Positions 1 to 51,650 of a DNA stretch of 64,000 nucleotides are shown one piece after another. The notes beneath the pieces were generated by a model. It was not told where the DNA came from, made no database searches, and worked only from the letters and a program-made list of their open reading frames with translations. The stretch is taken from contig NOWV01000010.1 of NCBI GenBank assembly GCA_003344405.1, forward strand, positions 806,001 through 870,000. The letters are read 5' to 3'. Every line of letters starts with the position of its first letter. The stretch's first letter is position 1. Source of the stretch: Trichoplax sp. H2 (Eukaryota). The translations under genes and the position numbers were made by a program.

Positions 1-3000
1 GTGACATCTGCAGCGTGAGTGGAATTGTGAAATGGATTTCTTCGATGGTATGATTCTTCGATAAGTTCTAGGATGAGAATAAATACGATTAATTGAAATT
101 GCGCCAATAAAAAGTTCTCGTATAGAATGATAAAAATTTTAAATCACACTTTAAGTAGCCAATTGAACGTAGAATATATAATACCATGTAACATCTAATA
201 TAAATGATTCGATAACGTGCGATTAATTATTGTGTCATATAATACTTACTACATAATCGCATCAATTTAAGAACGTCCAAATCAAGCGTAGCAATTAAGT
301 TATGTTTTTGAAATAGATGCATGGCAAGATTAAATAGCGGATGACCTATTTTAAAAATATTACATTGAGGTATAAAGAGAAAGTTAATTGATATGTACGA
401 TGTTGTAAAGAATAAGTAATTACAAATTATAAAGTAAGTTAGATGAGTACGTAAGATTTAATATTAATACATAATTGTCTACAATTCTTAATATGGCTGT
501 GTAAAGATTTTACTATGTGAGACAGCATAGCCTACCTCATAGCCCTAAATTATAGACAATGATTTTATTAGAAAGGATCGTGTAAAATAATCCCTTATGC
601 AACCCTCATTAGTACATGATAAGAAGAAAATACTCATCGATCGGTTATGTATGCACTAGCTTATCAGAAACTAATTTGCCTACAGTAGGTTTCAACCCAT
701 TAGGTCTATATTTACTATACGGTATATGGTTGCTATCAAGTGTTTCCTAAATAACTGAATCAATGTTATTAAGCCTCCCTATGGGTATAAATATCGATGT
801 AGCGATTAGCTTATACTAATTCACTAAATGGAAAGACTCATTATACCAAGGACCTCAAATATCCAATGAATTATCAAAGATCTCATACCGTACAAGAAAG
901 TCCGAAATTATCAATAAATTATAAACACAGGCATTTCTATATTGCCATATTGTATAAATAACTTTGTTCATGTATGTATATGTACACTTTTAATACTACA
1001 ATTTAATCTCTACCACTAATAATGTTACGGGGTATAATTAACCATGAGATGGTCTAGCAACTAATGAAAGGATATCAATCATTGCACTAATTTGAACTCT
1101 TTCTGAAGTTAATAAAACTAACGCAATACTACAAGAGTATCATAATGTTAAAATATTGGCTAATTATCATAATTACAATCATCAAACAAAAACTAAAGCA
1201 CTGCTTAATGCGTCAACCAAAGATCGAATAATTGAAACAACAAGACTACATTATGAAATAATCACTAAATCATACCTCAGTATATCAAAAGCTATTATGC
1301 CCTAAGGTATATGGGCATAAATTTAAAGTATACGAGTCAGTAAAGCCTATACTATCAAATATTAACGTTATCCGTACAGAACAAAGCCTAAATAGCGAAA
1401 TATCGCATAAAGAGAAAAAGTTTAAATCCATAACTATGAAAAATATTTAAGTTTATGTATATAGGTCTCTAGTATCAAGTCACACTAGTCTATGATAAAA
1501 TAAAAGAAAAATTTTACTGTTTTATTTATTGTTTACAGAAATACTTCTGATCTATTATCAATCGATATAGATATATATATATATATATCATGAAATTTAC
1601 TAGCTATTTATATATTTATAGAGATAATATGTAAAAATGCGTAGAGTACCAGTTTTAGCCTAAGTATATCGTTAAGAAATGAGAAAATTTTGCAGGGTGT
1701 GTGTACCTTGCACAGATGTGAATTAGAATTATAGTAATTTAGAAAACCTTCATTCTTTTACGGTAAACTAAATAAGGAAACGAATTGGTAATATTACCCT
1801 GATTTAGAATAGCATATTTCTTACCTCTTGTTACTAAATCCAGTTTTATTGTATCAAATTCCCATTCGTCGGCATTATCTAATAACATCTGTGAAATATC
1901 AACAATCAGTTTCTATATTGGTGGATATATGAATGTAACATATAAATAGATTATATCATACAAGAATCAATATGTGCCATAATTTAAAGCTAAATCATTA
2001 ACCAAGAAATTATTACCCGAGGACTAAAATCTACAATAACGGGGATAAATATAGGCTCTTTGCCACTGGCCTGAATTGTATAGTATACAGTCGAGCAGAT
2101 CTATATTTTTCCCATTATTTGTATTGTATTGGTAAATGCATTTAACTTGTAACTGACTACAGTATAGTATTATTAGCTTTGTAAATACTTTATACGTTTC
2201 TATTACAATTATATATTTAATAAAGTATAGTATTAATTAATTTTGGCTTGAATTACTATGAATAACAATTTATCGTAACTAATATTGGATTATTAGCAAT
2301 ATTTTCGTTTACATGCCTGATTATAAGCTTACAAGATATTATCACAGTACTATACTATCATTTAGGATGGAATGATAAGATCCCAAGTGACTCTTCGATT
2401 CACCGTTTAACATTGTACATTGTGCACTTATAGGGGATCCGGTAAAGTTTGAGGAGCTACAATGCATTACCGCGATAAACATTCTTTGCAAGGTACAAAA
2501 CAACGAAAATTTTTGTTATAATTTCTATGTGCCGCACAGACAATGTAGTTTACACAGCGGTAAAAAACAACACCAAATATATACTATACGGAGCTGAAGT
2601 AGTTCAAGATGCATATCTCGAGATCTGTGCTAACTACTAAAGCCCCTTTTAAATAGTACAGTCTCTTAAAATATGTACAAGTACAGTATTGTATGGCATC
2701 ATACCGTTGAAATGTATATTGTCTATTGCAATAACGATTATACACTATATAAGGCCAAAGGGAACTTCAAAGGATTAATATAATAGATAAAACGCCAAAA
2801 TGTATACAGTACGTCATAAACAATGACTCGATTAATGATCAGGATGATACGCACACATCTCTATTACAATATACGCGTATATTGTAAATTTAATTAATTT
2901 ATATGCATGCTCGAAGTTACGTGCTTGAGGAGGGAATATTAAAAAAAATAATGTAAATTTAAAAAAAATAAATACCTATAGAATTCAATACAGTATCAAC

Positions 3001-6000
3001 TGCTGATTATCTGAAATTGATAACCCGGTAGCGATCATTATAACTGATAAGGTAGAATTGAAATTGGGTTATGTTAAGTTAATTATGATGCTTCGTCTCC
3101 GACGGCGAGAGGAATCTGCGATTATTAAAATCCTTCTTGAATCTGATTTATGCAACTACCGTATAAGGCAATATTGTCTTGCTATACAAAGCATAATAAT
3201 TTTTTTTGCATATCAACAGTTTTACAGTTTACGTACGTATTTAGCGAAAATCAATGATGCAATATATCAAGCTTTAACAGTAACTATTTAGATCAAGTTA
3301 AATTTATAACCTTACACTCCAACTACCACATTGTGATACAAATGTATATATAATACAATATAAATAATAATCGTATGTTATCCTTTAAAAACATGTAGTT
3401 CATTAATCCATTAAGATCCTGTAGAACCGGATCAATACTAGAACCTTTACGTCATACTGTACATTAACACGAAGTTTCAGGAGTGCAAAGTTATAAAATA
3501 TTTTCTTCCCTTACAACTCTACTCAACGATCTGGTCTATAGCATATCTCGTATGATAGCTATCACTATCGGATGTTAAATTGATTATATCTCGTGGTCAA
3601 TACGTTACGATGTTATGCTTACAAGTTATAAGTGTATAACAACGATCTATAGTTGCTAGTTGTCGATAGAGCAATTATACATTGATACGCGTTTACTATT
3701 GTTTCAAGACTTACTTGCCAATATGTTAGCTATTTATACATTTTAGTAAGCACAATACTGTAGCAACGATTCATAAATATTGTATATAAACGTATTAATT
3801 CACTTAATGACAACACCTGCAAAATGGTCAATTGCAAGAATGAAGTAACGCAATTTAGTCTGCTGCCTGAAGCTATAAAGTACCCTGAAGCATCAAATAT
3901 GAGCTAATTGAATATAAAACTAAACACTGTTAGGATGAGAACATAGTGTCATGATCAACACTATTATTCAATATACTGTACAGTATATATAAAATTCTTG
4001 TGATACGTTTGTGGCTTACAAAGTAATGAAATTGCATGTATTGTTAATACGCTTACTAATCGACTGGTATTCATAAATTACATAAGTACATTTTATGGAT
4101 GTAATGGTATGTAAAAATGCAGCAATTTATACGGCATCGAAAATTATCGTATCGTCTAATGATTTAAAGCAAAATAAAAGAATTAAAGTTTGATTATGCA
4201 TTATTAAAAGCTCAAAGATAGCAATCGATTTTAACGATCAATATAATCTCAAATTAAAATTTCTTCATTTAAAATGATTCAGTCGTTGCAATGACTCACT
4301 AAGGATATGAGAAAATCAGGCAGTATAAAATATGTTCCATGCAAGTAATGACAGGAATCCGCCTATTTATTTTGTAGTATACTTAATTAAAGTTAACAAG
4401 AGTGCTATAAAGACTGCCCGATCAAGATAAAAGTATGCACTGTTATGAACCGCGCCAACAACTATTTTAGCTTCTTGTGTAATCGCTGTCAATGAAAAGT
4501 AGTAATGCCAGCAATATGGCTTTTACGTATGAGACTTTAAAAGCATCGATTAACTTTTTACCGGAAATTGATGAGGAAATAGGTCCTATTAGCTGGATAT
4601 TTCGTTAATGTAGTAAGAATGTCAAGGAGATGAAAGTAGAATTCTATTTGGAAAGTGTCAATTGGTGTACGTAGGTATACCAAGGTAGACATGCTAAATC
4701 ACTTGCGAAAAGATGGTATCTTGCACTGCCAATGAAAGAATGATACAACGTACCATCGCTGCTAGATGATATTACTAGGTAAACTATTGAGTCCCGATTA
4801 GCGTAAAATCACATACATTTAAAATATACCGTACTTCTATGCTCCATTTTCCATTTTTATCTCTCTACTTGTCAGACAAATAAAAAATAATTTTTCACCC
4901 GATGATGATAATAATATTATTAATTAAACAATACGCGTTCAGACGTAACATAGTAACAAGACGCAATATTTATAAAATGTCCACATCTACTGTGCTATAT
5001 ACGGGTGAACAGTACTGTTGTATATGCCTTGTGCTCCATATCAAAACGGCGAAACTAGTCAGTCTGTTGGATCATCATGTAAAGCTATAAGTAGAAGTGA
5101 GTGGTGGGTGATTCAATCTGATACCGTAAAATAGTTATGAAGTACTTTATTGATGGTTATTGACAATGCTTCACTAATATCATTGTCTAACTTTGGTCTA
5201 TGGCAGCACTAAAGAGGATGTTACCGACATCAATGTGAACTGTGCACGTATAATCCGATTTCCAATAAATACAATTTTTAGAAAAACAAGACTTTGGTGT
5301 ATTGCTTAAGTTGAAGTGTACTAGATTGCAATTAGCGTCTTGTTGGTGGACAACAACTAGGCATTATTGTAAGAGCAGGGATAAAATGTTGAAATTATTT
5401 TCAATTTAATTTGACCCATAATAGAAATACTGTAAGCATAGTCATTGAATAGGATGCAATGGTAAGCATATCGTATTTACAGCTAATAGCATGAGAATAG
5501 AATACAGTAACAAAAAACTTATTTACCTGCGTTAGGCCAGGATATTCGGTGTCCAAGACCAGCGTCGGTAAATGAGTGTGCTTGGATGCATTGAAATAGC
5601 TTTTGTTATCACTAAATTTTGTACCAATACTTGATCGTCGTAACAACATGCAATTTCTATAACGCCGCCTTGCAGTACAATTGTCTACGGTAGTTTCGTT
5701 GATTGTAGTTGAAGTATCTAAACGACAAGAGACAATAATGTATAGAAATGTTAACAAATAGACACTGAAAGCAAATTCAAAAAAATAGTAGTATATTACT
5801 AACATAAATTGTTCTAGCGTAACACTATCACCCGATCAACCTAATTTAAATCGCAATTGACGAGCATATTGGTGTATCATGAGTAAACAAACTGGTTTTC
5901 ATTGATCAAATTTATCATTTTAATTACGGCATGATCAAAAAATAAACTAACGCTAGTGTGTGGTATATTTTAGGACTACATGCAATTTCCCATCGAGTAA

Positions 6001-9000
6001 TAACGCACCATAGTATAGTACAGTCTCCATAGTGGCCTATTACTCTCATCAAAGTAGTGATGAGGAAAAGATGACAAAAAAAAAAAAATTACGTCAAAGT
6101 TGCCTTTGTTCCAATCAACAGATACGGCCTATAGGCAGACTGAAATTTGGATCCGATTATCCCTAAAGTGCCTATGACTATTTGTAATAAGGAAATGTCT
6201 AGATTGAAGAAACGTATAGGCAACAGCCTAACTTTACTCTATCTCTAGATACTGTATCATTGAAAACAACAAAGAAAATTATTTTGGTAAAGAAATTCCA
6301 AATTGTGCGATATTCTCATGGCCTCCCTCTCCCAAAATTGCCAGTGCTTGCTTGCAAATACGTTTCAATGACAAACGATCGCTGATTCTAGCGACAGTTG
6401 AAGTATTTTTTTATTGCATCTTGCACAGGGCAATGCCGTATCGTATGCAGTAGCATTGCAATTCATCTTGCATCTATTTACTTACTGTACATTAAAGTGT
6501 CTAGTATGACAGTGCTTTTGCCCTTATTTCTGGATCAATGACAACACATGTAAAAATGGATCTACAATCGTGAGTTATCTTATCTGTGTGAAGAGTGATG
6601 ATTCATAAACTACCTTGTCGTGTAGAGTATTTACTTTTATATTGACAGATTTTATTTTGAAGTGGTTTAGCTTTTTTCTTTTATTCGACAGTATTGGTAG
6701 AACTGTATATAGACCTCGTTGGATGATAGCGTTTATTAGCCGACAAGCGGCATATTTCAATAGCCATCTACTGCCATACTTTACTGCTGTACAAGGTTGT
6801 AGTAGTCTGATAACTGTAGAGTAGACAAGTGATATCAAATACAAGAGTCCATGTTGACTTTTTGTCTATCCTGCTACACACACACACACACACACGCATT
6901 GAATAAGTCTGACAATATTTTTTTACCGTTTTCGTTGATCAATGTTGATGAAGGCAATTGCGGCAATCTAGCCATACTACCAAGTCGATTTGCTTTACGT
7001 GACTTGTCCAAATTTCTTCGTATTCCAATGTCACCTGTACAATATCATGGTGTTCAAGCAAAAGAAAAAACTTTAGCAAACACTCATCGCTGCGGTTTCA
7101 ACGTTTCAACGGTAACTGATGGCCAATGATATTACTGGATGGCATTATATACGGCTAACGACTGCTTCACTTTGGACACGTACCGTGAGTCCAGTACAGT
7201 CGTGTACAGTGTATAGTCGTGTACAGTGTATAGTACTGTACAGTCGTGTACTGTACTGTACAGTGTCCAGTACAGTGTACAGTACAGTACAGTCGTGTAC
7301 AGTGTACAGTACAGTCCTGTACAGGGTGGGACGGACGTGTGACAGACAAAATACCAATTACAGCTTCTGTATGGCAGTACTGTACTCAGTAAGCTTTTGT
7401 CACCAGATACTGGAGATTATCGTATGATGTCAGTGTACACTCACTGCTGACAGAGTTCGCATGCACTGGACAGTACCGTGCCAGACGAGTATCAACAGTT
7501 TCCAAGGAAATCAACACGATTTCAACCGCACTTGCTTGAATATTATTCTACATTGAACGCTTAACTTAAATCTTTCATCATTTCGTTCGGAAATCAATCA
7601 ATGAAAAATTCGACAATGTTATTTAAGGACTGCAAAATGGATATTCCATTGATCAAACTGGACACTGTTATTTAAGGACTGCAAAATGGATATTCCATTC
7701 ATCAAATTGGACACTGTTATTTAAGGACTGCAAAATGGATATTCCATTCATCAAATTGGACACTGTTATTTAAGGACTGCAAAATGGATATTCCATTCAT
7801 CAAATTNNNNNNNNNNNNNNNNNNNNTGTGACAGACAAAATACCAATTACAGCTTCTGTATGGCAGTACTGTACTCAGTAAGCTTTTGTCACCAGATACT
7901 GGAGATTATCGTATGATGTCAGTGTACGCTCACTGCTGACAGAGTTCGCATGCACTGGACAGTACCGTGCCAGACGAGTGTCAACAGTTTCCAAGGAAAT
8001 CAACACGATTTCAACCGCACTTGCTTGAATATTATTCTACATTGAACGCTTAACTTAAATCTTTCATCATTTCGTTCGGAAATCAATCAATGAAAAATTC
8101 GACACTGTTATTTAAGGACTGCAAAATGGATATTCCATTCATCAAATTCGACACTGTTATTTAAGGACTGCAAAATGGATATTCCATTCATCAAATTCGA
8201 CACTGTTATTTAAGGACTGCAAATGAATATTCCACTGATCAAATTGGACACTGTTATTTAAGGACTGCAAATGGATATTCCATTGATCGAATTCGCACAT
8301 ACAGTACTGTACTGTACAGCTAGACCAAACTAAACTCTGCAGACAGCAAGTTGCAATCTCTAATGCCAGCTATCCTACAGTCAACCAAATCAGCTTTAGT
8401 AGCAAATTCATTTTGTTGATTCATTACAAGCCAAAGGGAAATATCGACCAATCAATTCATATTATACGTTTGTTACCTACGTTCTACCTTATGCCTACAG
8501 ACTATACTCTAAAGTGCATCTTAACACGTGCCAATCTACCTCTAGGATTTACGATGCTGCATAAATACATTATACACTCCAAGCTGAAGCGTATTTCCGA
8601 TATGATTTAGAGTTAGTTAACCCACGGTTTTAATCGTAAAGTAATTGAAACTTACCAAGCATTCGAACGTATTGCGCATCAATATCGTTTCGATCGTAGG
8701 AGATACCACCTCGTCTCTATCATTAAATTCAATACAAAAAAAATGAATTGTGGCAACAATATAGTTAGCAGAATACTAATCTTACATAAAACACAATAGA
8801 GATCAACTACTCAATTTTATCTTCTCCTAGTCGATTTAAGAATATCGGCAATTTTAAATTTGGGTTTAAAATCTTTACGGCGCTATGTTATGATTTACTG
8901 CTGTATTCATATGTATAATGTGGCATTGACTCTACTCTGCTGCGGTGTTGCGCATTACCCTTCGATAGATTTACCGAGAAGCTTTAAATAATATACGCTA

Positions 9001-11293
9001 AATGTAATTCTGTGATGAATGTACAATTTTCATCCTGGCTGACCTAGGAGTAAATCCAACACAATCTAGAATACAGTACTCAACTTTCCAACAATACCGT
9101 ATATCACACGATATCATTCACTTTGCCGTGTATCAAACCCCTTCAATATAAATATACTAATTTTATTAATAGACCTATGTTCGCGTATGCATGTAATTAA
9201 CATAACACCAACTACAAATCATCAACCATGAGGTATTTACTGCTATAAATTTTCTATTACCGTCATACAAATAGTCATGCTTGTAGTCACTAAAATGACA
9301 GACTTGATGTATTATACATCTTAAATTACGAATGTACAACTACAGTACCGTATGTAGCCAACGCTAAATACTATATATCAACACATATCATACGAGTACA
9401 TGAAGTACACTTGAGTGTTTTTACAGGAATCCTGGCTGCACTCCCACACCTACTAATAACGATAAATTTGACGTAGATTCATTTTTGATGTTCAGAGCTT
9501 GCTGTATCGATGTTTCAATGAACGATGTACATTACCGTAATATATCAACATGTATTGAATCAGTTTCAGCATGCAGCAATTACATTACTAATTTTGTACA
9601 ATAACACGGAAATATGGCTCATGTAATATTCAACGATGCCACTTAATATCTAGTTTAAAATACCAATGGCTAGGACTAAGGACTATAGATAGTCCACGCA
9701 TATACTCAATATTGGAGTATTGATAAAAGGCAAAAGCCTCAACATCCTTCAGTAAAAACGCAGGAATGACTATGGCAACATCGTGGCTAAGTAAATCATG
9801 AATATCATGAAATTCACACTGGTCGATACGATACAGTCTTGCTGGCTTTGTATTTCATAATGCTTGTTACATGAGAATTTTATGTGGCAAAACAGAAGCC
9901 CTTAGGATTGCCGAAAAAAATGTTGAAACTTGGACAGCAATGACCTCGGTATATTCTACATTTTACCGAAAAGTAGAAGTACCGTCTATATTCAAATTTA
10001 CTCTTCAGTCATTAATGTTACTTCTACATATTCAGCAGGTAAAGCTTTAGCAAGTCTGAATAGGATGGATTCTTCTGCTCATAGGTGATATACTGTCAGT
10101 TTTTACTTTATCAGAACTACAAGTGTACCTTCAATCTTTGATGAAAAGTACGCCAATAATGCCTGTACTAAAATTCGTGACAAAAGTTAAAATGAATTTG
10201 CGTATCGAATGTGAGGGCCATGAATATTATTCACGATGGTAAAAGTAACCAAGTCTGCAATATTTTATGCTAAACGTGGCGGAATTCAATTAGCATTTTA
10301 TTCGTTCAACACTACACCAGTGTAGGACATTGGTACTGTCCAGTTGCAATTGTCTACCGCTCTACCGGTAACCTCAGAAAAGAATTGAGCAGTTGCACAG
10401 TACTCTACTGTATTGTATTGTCCCGTTGTAGCCTATTTACACTAATATGGATCCTAAATTCATGATAGAACGTGCCATTACTTGTAAGTTTAGTTTGGCA
10501 TAATCGTCTGTGCGTATTCTTGCTCATTTATGAGTTCTAGTATTGAAATACTCAGTAACTTTGGTCAGTAAATAAACATACGTGCGTGGGTGAGTACACG
10601 CTTCAAAAGTTGACAATTTACAGTACGTCCAGTAGAGACCCTTTCAAGTCTCTAGTGTAGTCTAGCTTATTGTAGTGTAGTGCGCAGGAACAAAAACTTC
10701 CATAGTGTACAGTACAATATACTGTAGTGTAGTGAAAAGATTTGTACTGTACTGTACGTATATGAACACGTACCGTCGTCATTAATTGAATTACCTAGTA
10801 TCAAATGAGTACAGTATACGTACTACATACAGTACCTGAATGTATGATTTACAAGAACGCTATTGTACAGAAAATGCCAACGATGGAAATCATACTAATC
10901 ACATCGAATAAAATCACCTTCCATGTTAAATTATGACTCTACTATACACTTTCAATTAAAATAAAAAGAAGATTGTATTGACTGCCAAGACAAAAAAGAG
11001 CTTCTTCATCGTTATCATACAGTACAGTATACCCAAACCGAGAAGGCAATCAACACCGTATGAACTGTAAAGGCGCAGTAACGTGTGGTAGATGGAAGCG
11101 GATAGCACATCGCATTAAATAATTATTAATTTAAGTAACTTACTTCTAATCTTGGTAATCCTTCAAAGAGCGATGAACCTGAGCTAAAGCTGATTGCGCC
11201 ACGACGATGAGCTAATACATGCCTAGGTATAGTACGATCCAGTGGTAAATGCGGTAAACTAAAACGGTGCACTTGAACCGCACCGATGTCCAT
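1..11293 (-). CDS. PDE7: PDE7-family high-affinity cAMP-specific 3',5'-cyclic phosphodiesterase, 5' part (gene continues beyond position 1)
   Basis: Minus-strand exons with GT-AG sites and matching phases: 11144-11293 (MDIGAVQVHRFSLPHLPLDRTIPRHVLAHRRGAISFSSGSSLFEGLPRLE), 8656-8716 (RRGGISYDRNDIDAQYVRML), 6927-7034 (GDIGIRRNLDKSR...INEN), 5527-5717 (DTSTT...RRRYRNCMLLRRSS...LVLDTEYPGLTQ), 1825-1888 (MLLDNADEWEFDTIKLDLVTR), 250-345 (GHPLFNLAMHLFQKHNLIATLDLDVLKLMRLC), 1-67 (KLIEESYHRRNPFHNSTHAADV). The last exon has the PDEase metal-binding motif YH..NP[YF]HN..HAADV. The N-terminus matches human PDE7A1 as I recall it (LPVLPLDRPVPQHVLSRRGAISFSSSSALFG...[23 protein letters not shown]). Boundaries of the 6927-7034 and 5527-5717 exons are less certain. 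Confidence 0.93.
7190..7325. repeat. Low-complexity TACAG/TGTAC simple-sequence tract
   Basis: Near-continuous repetition of gtacagt/tacagtgt/cagtcgtgtac units inside a PDE7 intron. It generates three spurious ORFs in the ORF track. Confidence 0.85.
7612..8296. repeat. 49-bp minisatellite (GACACTGTTATTTAAGGACTGCAAAATGGATATTCCATTCATCAAATTG), about 4 copies on each side of the N gap
   Basis: Units start at 7612, 7661, 7710 and 7759 (cut by the gap), then at 8101, 8150, 8199 and 8247. Confidence 0.92.
7807..7826. other. Assembly gap (20 N) with duplicated flanks
   Basis: Run of N. Sequence 7338-7806 is repeated almost exactly from 7827 onward. Confidence 0.97.
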
Positions 11294-14200
11294 TCCAACT
11301 ACAGTCAATTTGAACCTGTAGTGTCGTTGGAAAAGATAAAACCAAATGAAAATAATTGTACTAACAGTAGATAGATTATGAACAAGTTCTACAGTCTACA
11401 AATCGAATTTTTTGCCATCCACTCGCTGAAGTTTCCAGTAGTGTACTATAGTACAGCACAATACGGTTACAGTATGCTCAGTTAATACTGTACACCAGTG
11501 CTACAATGACTGAACAGCCTTGGTCTGCACATACTGTACAACACAGTAGAGTACAGTCCCGACTACAATACATTGTACTGTAATGTACAGTGTACAATGT
11601 ACTGTACCCTCCACTCAGTACAGTAGTGCTACTCACTCAGTAGTCAGTACAGTCCTCTGTAAATATTTGTACAGAACTCTTTGACGCCAAATGGAGTAAA
11701 AAAAATAAAAGAAAAAGCTTCAGTACAGTACAGTATACAGTAGTCCAGTACAGTGTACAGTACAGGGACTTCACAGTATATACACTGTAAGGTTTTCTTT
11801 CAGTACTGTACTGTCAAAAGGAATAACTTTTAAAACTCGACATATAAAAGAATGACCTTGCCAGCATAACCATTCGATCACGAAGGTAGATTTACCTCCA
11901 AATCACGTTTTTGGACTGTAAAAAAAATAGTTTTAGAATCTCCAGGCTACAGAAAATACACCTAAATTTGAGTAGTCCCTTTTATTCTCCGGCTATCTTG
12001 ATTAGTGTGAGTGAGCTCCATCAGTTCTACTGAATGAAAATACGCCTAAAATACAGTACTATAACATATGGCGGAGTCGTCACAGTTCCACGTACTGCGC
12101 GTTATAATGCGAATTTTATAGAAGTATGCAAATTGTAGAATTTCATTCATTTTTTCCCGTCAAATAAAAATAGCTGCGGAGCGCACATACATACGTTCAT
12201 GCATTCGATAGCATAATAGATAAATTAAAAATTTCGAAAAAAACCAATTAATTAAAACAAAAGCGTAAATTGTGTTGTATCCAAGCCACATAAAGTTGTA
12301 TAGTAGATTAAAACTCATTTTTTTTTTTAACTAAATATTGTACATAATTCATATCATCCATATCATTTCTCAATTAATAGTTAATGCTATACAAAAGTAT
12401 ACTTTCAAGAAAAAGAAACTATTAAAATTTATAAAAGGAATTTCACTTATTATTTTACTGATCCCCTAATTATGGCAGCGCGCTCTACTAAGCTCTACTG
12501 TGTACTGACACTACTTTACAACGGTAAAACTCTAGCATGCTCAATTGCTCATGCTTTCAGCGCATTAATTGTTATGAAAATTTGGAGCACAAGTAGCCAA
12601 TCCCATACAATCGAATATCTACATACATATACAACATATATGCCTATGGATACTATTGGTGGGTTTGAGGGCTAACAAAAAATGATAGATAATCCGACAA
12701 AAGCTACACGTTTGTAGGATCGTAATCATTGAATGCTGACGACTTTTACTTTAGTGGACCTTGGTAGGCGGTCTAGAGCTCTGTAGAAAAATTACGGACC
12801 CAAGAAACATCATTGATATTTTATCTCCTATCTAACTAAAGTAATCGGCCCTAATATACACTACACCAATGATTAGCATTCAATGTTTTCAATGTCTTGT
12901 GGAACAAAATCTCATCAAGTTTTCTTGCACTCTATATATTAGCGAGTATTGAGTATGGATTGTATAGCCTAACCCTCGTATACCTAACATTAACACGCTT
13001 AAGCACGAGCTAATAGTAAAATATATTCTATAACTAGATAGTGTACACAGTCTTTCGCAATTGTAAAACTAACTTCAATTTATAGTATTACTAGTTGCAA
13101 TCTCCAACGCACGCCACAAATATCCCAGATGCAGTATATATGTATCTTACATAAACTATGAACACTCGTCGTACAAATTAATTATTTGGATGCAGTATGT
13201 CATACTGAGAACGGTATTAAGTACTTCATAAGTAGAGGAAAGTATCTTCAAGTCTGCAAAAATTTAATGTTTAATAGCCTAATTATCTTGCCAATTTCGT
13301 AATAGATGCTACAAAAATTATAAGGAGAACGCTCAGTTTATCAAATGCTACTGCGAGGTCTAAAAATATCGACGTTACATACCTGTGCACTGCGAAGTAT
13401 ATTTATCAAAAGTAGAAACATAGGCTTCTAGCCTCGTCTTCATGTAATCTAAATCAAGATTTAACGTGCACGTATATAGAAGATTAATATACAATATTCT
13501 GTGAATTTTGCATACGAGAGACCGCATACTAAAGGCCTTCTACAATACTGTATATTGCACGGAGCATGGACTACGATAGCAGAAGGAGAATCCCGAGGCC
13601 CATGTAGAACCCCATGCATCGAGATCTTCGGAGTACACCACACTTTCTAATATTATTTACCGGCCCAATGCAAACTATTACGATATTGTTAGTTTATTGA
13701 AAAATAGTCTACGTAGATCGATACTATAGTATGTCGTAGCCTGATTTCAAGTATAAAATTAGACTCTAAGAATTAAACGATAATAATTATAGTCATTATT
13801 TCAATTAATATTGTAACTATATCAAGAAATTAATGAGTACCATCTAGTTGAAAGTAAACGGAAGCCATGAAACAATTTCTCATTGTTTCCTCAAAACTAC
13901 TGGAATATTTTTTACTGTCAAGTGGAATTAATAAATTATCTACAGTTAATGCATTCTACTGGAGTTATCTGCGTGAAAACCAACGCGATTAGAAAATTAT
14001 AGCAAGTTAATTTACCTCATGGTAAGTACACCCAATGCTCTTTTGTTAAAGGAACGTCAAACAATATTTTATAGCCTATCTATAAATCTAAAATACCTTT
14101 GCAGCATTTCATTTTATTTATGCTACATACGCGTACAAAATCTGAGATAAATCCCTTGTATCCTAACAGGTTTTAGTGAATAACAAGGAAAATTAGATAA

Positions 14201-49000: not shown

Positions 49001-51283
49001 ATTCTACTAGAATTCCCGGTAAAGCGACGTGATATTGATTTAAAGCTTGTAATATCGCATCAATAAGGTACTAAAGTCGATCTGTTATCTTTGGTTAGCA
49101 TATCCGATCCGATGGCAGGAATTTTATATTTTTTAATTTTAGAGCAGTTTATATTTTTTCGATAACAATAGATAAATTATAAAAAAAAATATGCCATGGA
49201 TAGTTAAACAATGTCGTCGATGTGTTTCTCAGGCTTTGCTTTTGACATATTGAATTGTGGAATATGTTGATGAATCGTTAATATAATGGATATATTGATT
49301 ATTTGGTTGGCTGCATGTATCAAAGGGTGACGATGGACGAGTATGCATAGACAATCTATAAATAGTGTAGTACTTTAGCAGCTAGCATTTTAGAAGATGA
49401 TCTCAATTTCATCATGGCTATGTCTATCAATTTTAACAACTACAGTACAATATTGGAATGTTTTCATAAGCTAAGATCAATGATAACTGCAGCATAGTTG
49501 TATATCTTGTTCTATTGGTATAGCTTAATGGTGACTGGATGAAAAATTTTCAAATTTAATCTAATCTGTTGCGGGCAAATGATGGTGGTCATTCTTGATA
49601 ATGACACTGACTTTGAGTTGTTAGGAAATGGAACAAGATGGTGATTTAGATCAACGATGAGTAAATTCTACTATACTGGTACTCTGGTAGTAATTCTTCT
49701 CGATGTCTACCACTGTCTCAATAGCAGTATCGACTGTGTGAATGGGGGAAATATTGTAATGCGATGTGATACTAGGGTGGTTGATCTAGGAAAGGTGAAA
49801 GAGGGTGATTTCGATTAGATTTAGGATGCGGAAATCATATAAAACGTGCGGTAGAGACAGTATCGTAACTTCAATATTCTACTAATCAAATTCATGATAG
49901 TCTGTAAATCCGTTGGATTTTACAGGGCAGTATCTTCAAGATATATCTATTTTGATTTAGTTGGTTGAAGAAGACCAATTTTATTATTTTTCTGTCCATA
50001 ACGACGTATAGTCAAGATGAAACAAGATTGATGAAGAGTATTGTATAGTATTAGGAATTTTTTTTTGCAGACGTTAAGCTCTGGTTGATAATGTCTGCCT
50101 AGCGTTCAGATAGCAACTTGGACGTTATTTTATTGACCAGAAATATCTGCTGATGATTGCTTTTTACGTGTTGAGCAGTAATTAAGTTTGCAATATTTAA
50201 CTTGATCGATGAGTTCCACGAGGCAAGTATAGTACAGTACTTCCATCCAATATTTGTTTAGGAATCGACGTCAATATCGACTTGATAACCCAATTTGATG
50301 AAAGTGAACGATTTTGCAATAGGATGATGATGATACATTGAATAAGGTAACTTTATCTTTAGCATGGACTATCAGTAACATACCAGTGATGTGTAGCTTA
50401 GGTTATTGAATTGCAGTCATTGATTTGGTGAGTATTTGAATGGAACACTTTTGATTATACTCGTATCAAGACAGTTGTGAACGTTTCCATTTGCGTCTTA
50501 CTGTACTACTGTATGTATGGAGGGAAGCAGGTAAGAAATGTGTGATTGATTGAAAATTGCCCCTCCAAAACAACATTGACTGTGCCAATTGGCTACATAA
50601 TATCAATTGATATGACTATCCAAATCGTGCTAGCTATGTAAAGCAAGTTTAATTGTCGGTACAAACCTGGAAAAAGCATATCCATAAATTGGCAATAAGC
50701 AGCTCCTGTCAAAATAGTGTGAAGATAGAAGAACGACGTTAGTGCAATTCAAGTAAAAAAAGGACGGAGATATTGGAGGGTAGATTACAAGATTGAAGGC
50801 AATCGACAGTAGAGTAAATACTATCAGTGATGATGCTAAAATTCAAACTAGATTGGTTTATTAACTTGATAAGAGTTGTTAATTGATGATTTGAGATCGT
50901 AATTAGAATGATACTATGTGCAAAAGAGGGAGTGGAGGGATCGTATTCTACTGTCGTATCGATCAAGCAAGGGTTGCACTATTCAAGCCAATATGCAGCT
51001 TGTTGAGTGACAATGATGAAAGCTATACTCGACTGATGTATTACAAGTTGGAAGGAAAAAAAGGCTACAACGCATTTCCTCGAGCATAACATGATGAAAA
51101 AGTAGAATAGATTGATGTCGATGGAAAGCAAATAGACCAGTTTATCGCTAAAAACCACATGCCTGAACATAGTTGCTCGACTTTAGTATAACTGAGTTGT
51201 AATTGATCGTTGACCCAAGCGATCATATCATGACGGCTTAAGTTATCCAGCGATGCTGATGTTGCATGTACGTTAATAGCCAT
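46003..51283 (-). CDS. MAPRE: Microtubule-associated protein RP/EB family (EB1-like plus-end tracking protein), complete, 264 aa
   Basis: Exons: 51163-51283 ([40 protein letters not shown]), 50667-50705 ([13 protein letters not shown]), 47149-47255 ([20 protein letters not shown]...VDK), 46744-46945 ([28 protein letters not shown]), 46503-46612, 46190-46342 ([21 protein letters not shown] domain), 46003-46065 ([23 protein letters not shown] tail). Total 795 nt, in frame. Confidence 0.97.
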
Positions 51284-51299
51284 GTCTATGCTTGTTCTT

Positions 51300-51650
51300 T
51301 CTCTCTCCTTCTTCTCACAAATGGATTTACAATCGGTGAGACGGAAATCACCAGGGAAGTTGCGATGAAAAGACGGCAAAAAAAGATTTGAATTCTGATA
51401 CTAATTGAAGGCGGGACTAGTCTATTTGGGTAACGTCCTAATAGCCGCTCGGGTAGTATAGTGTCTATGTCAAGTCATTATTTTGCATACTGTAGAAGGC
51501 AAATCGCTGCCTCTTATTTGATACAATTTCTCTTTGTTCTCCAGGTTGTAACCAGTCCTCTAGCTAGCCGTCTCCTTTGAACACTAGCCGCCCTCATCGT
51601 GGTTACAGTACCACCACTATAGACGGCTAGGATTTGCAACATGGTTGCCG
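51300..51650. promoter_or_regulatory. Probable (bidirectional) promoter region between MAPRE and TAF2
   Basis: Lies directly upstream of the MAPRE ATG, is locally GC-richer and has four TAGCCGYC motifs. The TAF2 start is not fixed, so bidirectionality is inferred. Confidence 0.4.

Follow-up and report, generated by a model that had tools for sequence, protein, structure and literature searches.

In a 64,000-nucleotide stretch of the Trichoplax sp. H2 genome (contig NOWV01000010.1, positions 806,001 to 870,000 of the forward strand; the whole stretch is called the window below), a minus-strand gene encodes a phosphodiesterase (PDE) of the PDE7 family with two N-terminal motifs, RRGAIS and RRGGIS, that resemble inhibitors acting on the catalytic subunit (PKA-C) of cAMP-dependent protein kinase. 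The protein is a placozoan PDE7 orthologue, and the homology of this feature to the known design of PDE7A1 is hardly open to doubt. According to several reviews, mammalian PDE7A1 binds and inhibits PKA-C through two N-terminal pseudosubstrate sequences (PMC6143667 and PMC12174393, on the work of Han et al. 2006; PMC7504236, PMC13095499). Trichoplax thus adds a new and very old case of that design, older than the evidence of an initial annotation of this DNA had shown. We favour the reading, likely in our judgement, that this is a cAMP-hydrolysing PDE7 whose N-terminal module also captures PKA-C.

With 10 kb added to the left of the window edge, the gene has 14 exons, all with GT-AG borders, and an open frame of 485 residues. 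Both motifs that the initial annotation reported in tandem are present at the first two coding exons. Exon 1 (11293-11144, minus) runs for 150 nt from the ATG to a GT donor and encodes LPHLPLDRTIPRHVLAHRRGAISFSSGSSLF; exon 2 (8716-8656, minus) is 61 nt long with AG/GT borders and begins RRGGISYD, and the junction between them is in phase 0. In all six frames of the window RRG[AG]I occurs 2 times; 40 codon shuffles gave 0.075 on average and never more than 1. The parts of the gene, all on the minus strand, are:

11294..11791, minus strand: 5' untranslated region within exon 1, of this length or longer; an X5 contig spans 11144-11791 and is joined to exon 2
11144..11293, minus strand: coding exon 1, residues 1-50, with the conserved LPxLPLD..IP..VL segment and repeat 1
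11189..11206, minus strand: repeat 1, RRGAIS, residues 30-35, in the PKA-C cleft in the complex model
10582..10659, minus strand: candidate alternative non-coding first exon, a weak lead from one X10 contig (166 nt, depth 2.8)
8717..11143, minus strand: intron 1, phase 0, GT-AG, 2427 nt, directly before repeat 2; RNA joint in 3/4 runs
8656..8716, minus strand: coding exon 2, residues 51-70, with repeat 2, RRGGIS (8716-8699), and the conserved D..A.Y.R.LG segment
6927..7034, minus strand: coding exon 3, linker; the loose ends of three RNA contigs fit its start
5527..5717, minus strand: coding exon 4, linker, with the PKA consensus site RRSSI (5640-5626)
1825..1888, minus strand: coding exon 5, start of the catalytic domain
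250..345, minus strand: coding exon 6, catalytic domain
1..67, minus strand: coding exon 7 (HNSTHAADV), crossing the window edge
At most 1.6 kb past the window edge, minus strand: exons 8-14, ending at G000:C2:804406

The database protein of Trichoplax sp. H2 named PDE7A is identical apart from a 26-residue insert located where exon 4 meets exon 5; the N-terminus of a Trichoplax adhaerens record matches at all but one residue. We prefer the 485-residue form to the 511-residue database model because the insert is absent from 26/26 orthologues and because without it RRSSI lies 46 residues before a conserved Trp, a sponge-like spacing (RRxS at 41-48 in the sponge clade); one shark record has a different insert at this position.

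To follow the splicing, RNA contigs from four runs containing the catalytic exons were compared with positions 8330-13000. The joint 8716/11144, which skips exactly the 2427 nt of 8717-11143 between CT..AC ends, was present in contigs of 3/4 runs, one recorded as RNA and two presumed to be RNA, under three different study codes. In the same three runs the sequence continuing below 8654 matches the beginning of exon 3, so that exons 1, 2 and 3 are joined. Two contigs extend about 2450 nt past exon 2, where 1247 nt of coding sequence remain, leaving room for a 3' untranslated region. The proposed junctions are thereby seen in RNA for exons 1-2 and 2-3, the joints that the compared region covers. 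Run X10 had no exon 1 joint; its contig leads from 10583 into exon 2, with just 19 nt on the 10583 side and a GTATGT donor at 10581. The stretch 10582-10659 contains stops and no in-frame ATG; the product of this weak lead would begin at Met69 and have neither repeat, as in short isoforms annotated in scallop. Within intron 1 (9785-10634), an 806-nt X5 contig omits 87 nt whose plus-strand ends are GT..AG, which would fit either splicing of an antisense RNA or a deletion in the strain. Near-identical blocks of about 425 bp at 7340-7800 and 7860-8300, each with a 49-bp x4 tandem array, flank a 20-N gap and are probably an assembly duplication, and GTACA/CTGTA-rich low-complexity repeats occupy 11400-11800 (the long 5' untranslated region) and 7190-7320 (intron 2); one run shows 5-nt indels there.

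The assignment to PDE7 made in the initial annotation is supported in the same direction by best relatives, fold, tree and reciprocal match. The best solved relative is human PDE7A with 326 bits, compared with at most 214 for PDE4, 180 for PDE1 and 170 for PDE8, PDE9 also being more distant; the closest fold is also PDE7A (root mean square deviation 0.7), and frog PDE7A used as query finds this locus first among the PDE loci of the genome. PDEase_I (PF00233, E 2e-75) is the sole Pfam domain over the cut-off, with no GAF, PAS or UCR, and by family membership this C-terminal domain would hydrolyse cAMP; the hydrolysis typical of PDE7 enzymes is of high affinity, specific for cAMP and insensitive to rolipram. 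Residues H263, H267, H303, D304, H307, E333, D413 and Q464 (P0003 numbering), which we take to include the metal-binding His/Asp and the invariant Gln of class I PDEs, are invariant in 27/27 aligned sequences. A FastTree tree of catalytic domains (69 sequences, 311 columns; 12 partial matches were left out of the first tree) places the protein in a clade with all named PDE7A/B at a support of 0.974. This clade splits into a sponge group and a placozoan plus bilaterian group (support 0.946), and its sister branch consists of a Chromosphaera PDE and one further protein, both without repeats. Of the PDE4/7/8 tree that had been proposed, the grouping with PDE7A/B stands, with an outgroup in which one PDE4 and no PDE8 is recognisable.

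The N-terminal module is conserved well beyond its motifs. Among the 27 aligned sequences, which were selected for carrying the module, the mean identity of the 26 orthologues to the Trichoplax protein is 0.58 for residues 13-72, 0.09 for the linker and 0.44 for the catalytic domain, i.e., the module is the better conserved of the two domains in an alignment chosen for it. Both Arg pairs are invariant (27/27), the Ser at P+2 (counted from the phosphoacceptor position, or P-site) and the A.Y.R.LG segment are nearly so, and no Pfam family covers residues 13-72. Identity to echinoderm PDE7 N-termini reaches 79% over 38 residues, and the alignment supports common descent with vertebrate PDE7A1 along the entire N-terminus. 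By comparison, RRx[AG][IV]S was found in 0/60 other PDE matches. With a search pattern that left the P-site free, the P-site of repeat 2 was Ala or Gly, and never Ser/Thr, in 41/41 chosen proteins (24 hand-picked non-vertebrates and 17 vertebrates). The 24 non-vertebrates have Gly in 13 cases and Ala in 11, and Gly occurs in a fish too. The initial annotation had called one repeat RI-alpha-like and the other RI-beta-like; this gloss is meaningless because Ala and Gly swap freely among orthologues, and the RI-type subunit of this genome itself reads RRGGV. The flanks of repeat 2 are also patterned: non-vertebrates have Arg at P-6 in 21/24 and Phe/Tyr at P-11 in 15/24, vertebrates Arg at P-8 and an aromatic residue at P-14 in 17/17. 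In PKI, the Phe at P-11 has a role, and our literature search found no passage on PKI Phe10; one preprint names P-7 and P+1 for PKI instead.

Both repeats with their flanks are found in the sponges Oscarella and Halichondria, the echinoderms Amphiura, Diadema and Antedon, Branchiostoma, the molluscs Mizuhopecten, Haliotis, Aplysia, Nucella and Biomphalaria, the nemertean Tubulanus, the bryozoan Watersipora, and PDE7A of lamprey, sharks, fish and tetrapods. Repeat 1 lies within 32 residues in 74/113 proteins with repeat 2, isoforms and near-copies counted. The module pair is absent from those PDE7B, arthropod and flatworm records whose N-termini were inspected, and the module is absent from the closest unicellular PDE (Chromosphaera). 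One Trichogramma wasp PDE7 (P0075) shows a relic of repeat 1 with the upstream segment, the other arthropod PDE7 records inspected being without the module. An atlas search with residues 8-80 and a PDB search with exon 1 gave no match. The earlier suggestion that the dual design is far older than vertebrates is upheld by its extension to sponges; of the proposed survey of PDE7 N-termini the sponges came out positive, while no named cnidarian, ctenophore or choanoflagellate was among the best 120 of 1172 matches or the 30 proteins searched by name, which does not imply loss. Judging from these sequences, the module is best explained as already present when sponges, placozoans and bilaterians shared an ancestor, with later loss or erosion in PDE7B, arthropods and flatworms. 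Because sponges also have the two-part tail, the combination of cAMP removal and probable kinase silencing in one enzyme looks as old as animals. A literature search without most subscription journals found no paper on conservation of the module outside vertebrates; one paper mentions a sponge pde7a transcript, without its N-terminus (PMC7743902).

The exon junction directly before repeat 2 is also a point of exchange. It had been equated with the point where alternative PDE7A N-termini join, and fish isoforms and invertebrates agree: two fish PDE7A records whose first exon is hydrophobic (P0224, P0294) swap the N-terminus at precisely this point, as do the isoform sets of Antedon, amphioxus, scallop, abalone and Tubulanus. 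Short isoforms, of the PDE7A2 type in vertebrates and also in invertebrates, retain repeat 2 and replace everything before this shared junction, unlike the weak lead for an alternative first exon in Trichoplax, which would encode neither repeat. Four short gene calls of the sponge group continue through both repeats and diverge from the alignment just after the following LG, from which the intron between the repeats seems to be absent in that group and the intron after exon 2 shared.

A complex model built without alignments, from residues 8-78 with a stand-in PKA-C (L016), ATP and Mg, points to how the module could act. The score mark used is reached by 51/78 solved complexes and 2/108 mismatched pairs (eukaryotes: 71/105 and 2/126). 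The module scored 0.88 (runs 0.88/0.87/0.88), the best of three controls 0.55; the runs shared at least 53% of contacts, with a partner predicted local distance difference test value (pLDDT) of at least 49 and an interface at residues 10-36. Repeat 1 runs along the cleft, and L18/I22/V26/L27 lie on the YPPFF patch of the C-lobe, presumably the pocket used by PKI's helix, so that the model makes the conserved segment upstream of repeat 1 a candidate docking segment for the kinase C-lobe. The model, given one kinase, selected repeat 1 and so did not bear out repeat 2 as the main PKI-like site. In the monomer model (shallow alignment, 27 sequences) the N-terminus has low confidence, with a pLDDT of 40-64 and no confident packing on the catalytic domain, and is therefore probably exposed. 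The PKA-C exons of this genome retain the docking motifs, and an RI-type subunit is also present.

Under the favoured reading, the flexible N-terminal module would present two RR-x-(A/G)-(I/V) pseudosubstrate motifs able to enter the cleft of free PKA-C without being phosphorylated. Affinity would come from the conserved flanks, LPxLPLD..IP..VL before repeat 1 and the PKI-spaced P-6 Arg and P-11 aromatic before repeat 2. The same protein would then lower cAMP and trap released PKA-C, as reported for mammalian PDE7A1, and the linker RRxS site would probably serve feedback phosphorylation. By analogy with mammalian PDE7A1, we consider it likely that the Trichoplax module inhibits PKA-C.

Several observations weigh against this reading. 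The stand-in kinase is 78-82% identical to four PKA-C exon matches of this genome, and peptides and disordered partners lie outside the calibration of the complex model. Because solved PKA-inhibitor complexes exist, the 0.88 score may reflect memory of them or likeness to them. The best run left repeat 2 undocked, so that support for its PKI-like spacing comes only from sequence. The P-1 residue of repeat 1 varies among molluscs and sponges (D, S, N, F, H), and a Geodia record shows repeat 2 without a clear repeat 1. The one recognisable PDE4 (with UCR) and lack of PDE8 in the tree outgroup, and the splice joints that would link exon 3 with the catalytic exons, not seen in RNA, belong here as well.

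The linker bears on the strongest rival. The RRSSI site noted initially is confirmed in the 5717-5527 exon and lines up with an RRGS site that is conserved in the sponge clade's orthologues, with a positional counterpart in 8/8 demosponge-group sequences scored. RRx[ST] occurs in the linker of 20/29 orthologues, where shuffles predict about 4, although these sequences are related and not independent. This excess would also fit a module that tethers PKA-C locally, feeding phosphorylation of the linker or building a PDE-PKA complex, while being too scarce or weak for general inhibition; one review does list PDE7A1 among C-kinase anchoring proteins (PMC6143667). Such a tether is unlikely in our view, given that the repeat 2 P-site is never Ser/Thr and that repeat 1 is modelled in the cleft, where it would block the bound kinase. 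Less probable still is that the module is kept for another contact, with its own catalytic domain, a dimer partner or a scaffold, and that the likeness to PKA inhibitors is secondary. Conservation of about 60 residues, far past the motifs and including Ser P+2 and A.Y.R.LG, agrees with such a contact, as does the trace of A.Y.R.LG that persists in PDE7B, which has neither repeat; but the monomer model packs no N-terminus confidently on the catalytic domain and the complex model already accounts for the upstream segment as a kinase contact. That the motifs are there by chance, by convergence or by misjoined exons is largely refuted and extremely improbable: short Arg-rich motifs arise easily and the joints of exons 3 to 7 were not seen in RNA, but the spliced joints in 3/4 runs, the identity to echinoderm N-termini and the recurrence of this module with PDE7 catalytic domains in sponges through to vertebrates all speak otherwise.

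Elsewhere in the genome, three RIIa dimerisation/docking matches (L008, L010, L011) lie within 19 kb (G000:C530:51841-70355), a possible tandem set of RII-like genes, and two PKG-like kinase genes (L005, L006; G000:C352) lie about 63 kb apart; in L005 a short exon is duplicated next to an N gap. In the window, an open stretch at 51068-51400 (minus) resembles the beginning of a microtubule end-binding protein of the EB1/MAPRE type.

The 60-residue module is kept more strictly than the catalytic domain from sponges to mammals, which therefore argues that a non-catalytic role is a core selected function of PDE7. We found little published work behind the PKA-inhibiting role of PDE7A1, and a 2025 review describes PDE7 as without known N-terminal regulatory domain (PMC13095499). 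Drugs against the PDE7 active site would leave a non-catalytic function intact. Two testable additions to the known design emerge: the segment preceding repeat 1 is a candidate for docking, and in non-vertebrates the residues ahead of repeat 2 have PKI-type spacing, with L16, L18, D19, I22, V26 and L27 as well as R48 and F43 singled out as candidate residues. More tentatively, and doubtfully on present evidence, PDE7 may have arisen at the animal root as a fusion between a PDE and a PKA inhibitor with two sites. Repeat 1 would carry a non-PKI C-lobe segment and repeat 2 PKI-type P-6/P-11 anchors, and the choice of first exon at a single conserved junction would set the dose of inhibition. If so, it would be a cAMP-independent PKA brake older than PKI, and the main one in PKI-less animals.

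Among known systems, mammalian PDE7A1 is the closest, sharing the PDE7 catalytic domain, two N-terminal RRG(A/G)IS motifs, homologous flanks and an exon junction directly before repeat 2. The Trichoplax repeats are 21 residues apart and the vertebrate ones 24; for repeat 2, Arg stands at P-6 and Phe at P-11 rather than at P-8 and P-14. Relative to mammalian PDE7A1 there is one extra residue before repeat 1 and Gly at the second P-site. With PKI (PF02827) the repeats share the RR-x-A/G-I core, the Halichondria repeat being RRNAI, and repeat 2 has the P-6 Arg and P-11 aromatic spacing of PKI(5-24) (PMC6514771). Two sources call the salt bridge made by the P-6 Arg essential to PKI affinity (bioRxiv 2024.10.31.621410, PMC12184650). 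The module differs from PKI in having no Pfam PF02827 match and in sitting, with two repeats, in a 485-residue enzyme; the model favours repeat 1, whose upstream segment is unlike PKI, so that it is PKI-like in action at most. A PKI search of the genome gave no match, but its control also matched nowhere, hence this is no evidence of absence. The Ala or Gly at the P-site is as in the inhibitor site of PKA RI (PMC6143667), but Pfam finds no dimerisation/docking or cyclic-nucleotide-binding domains, and release of the module would therefore not be driven by cAMP binding.

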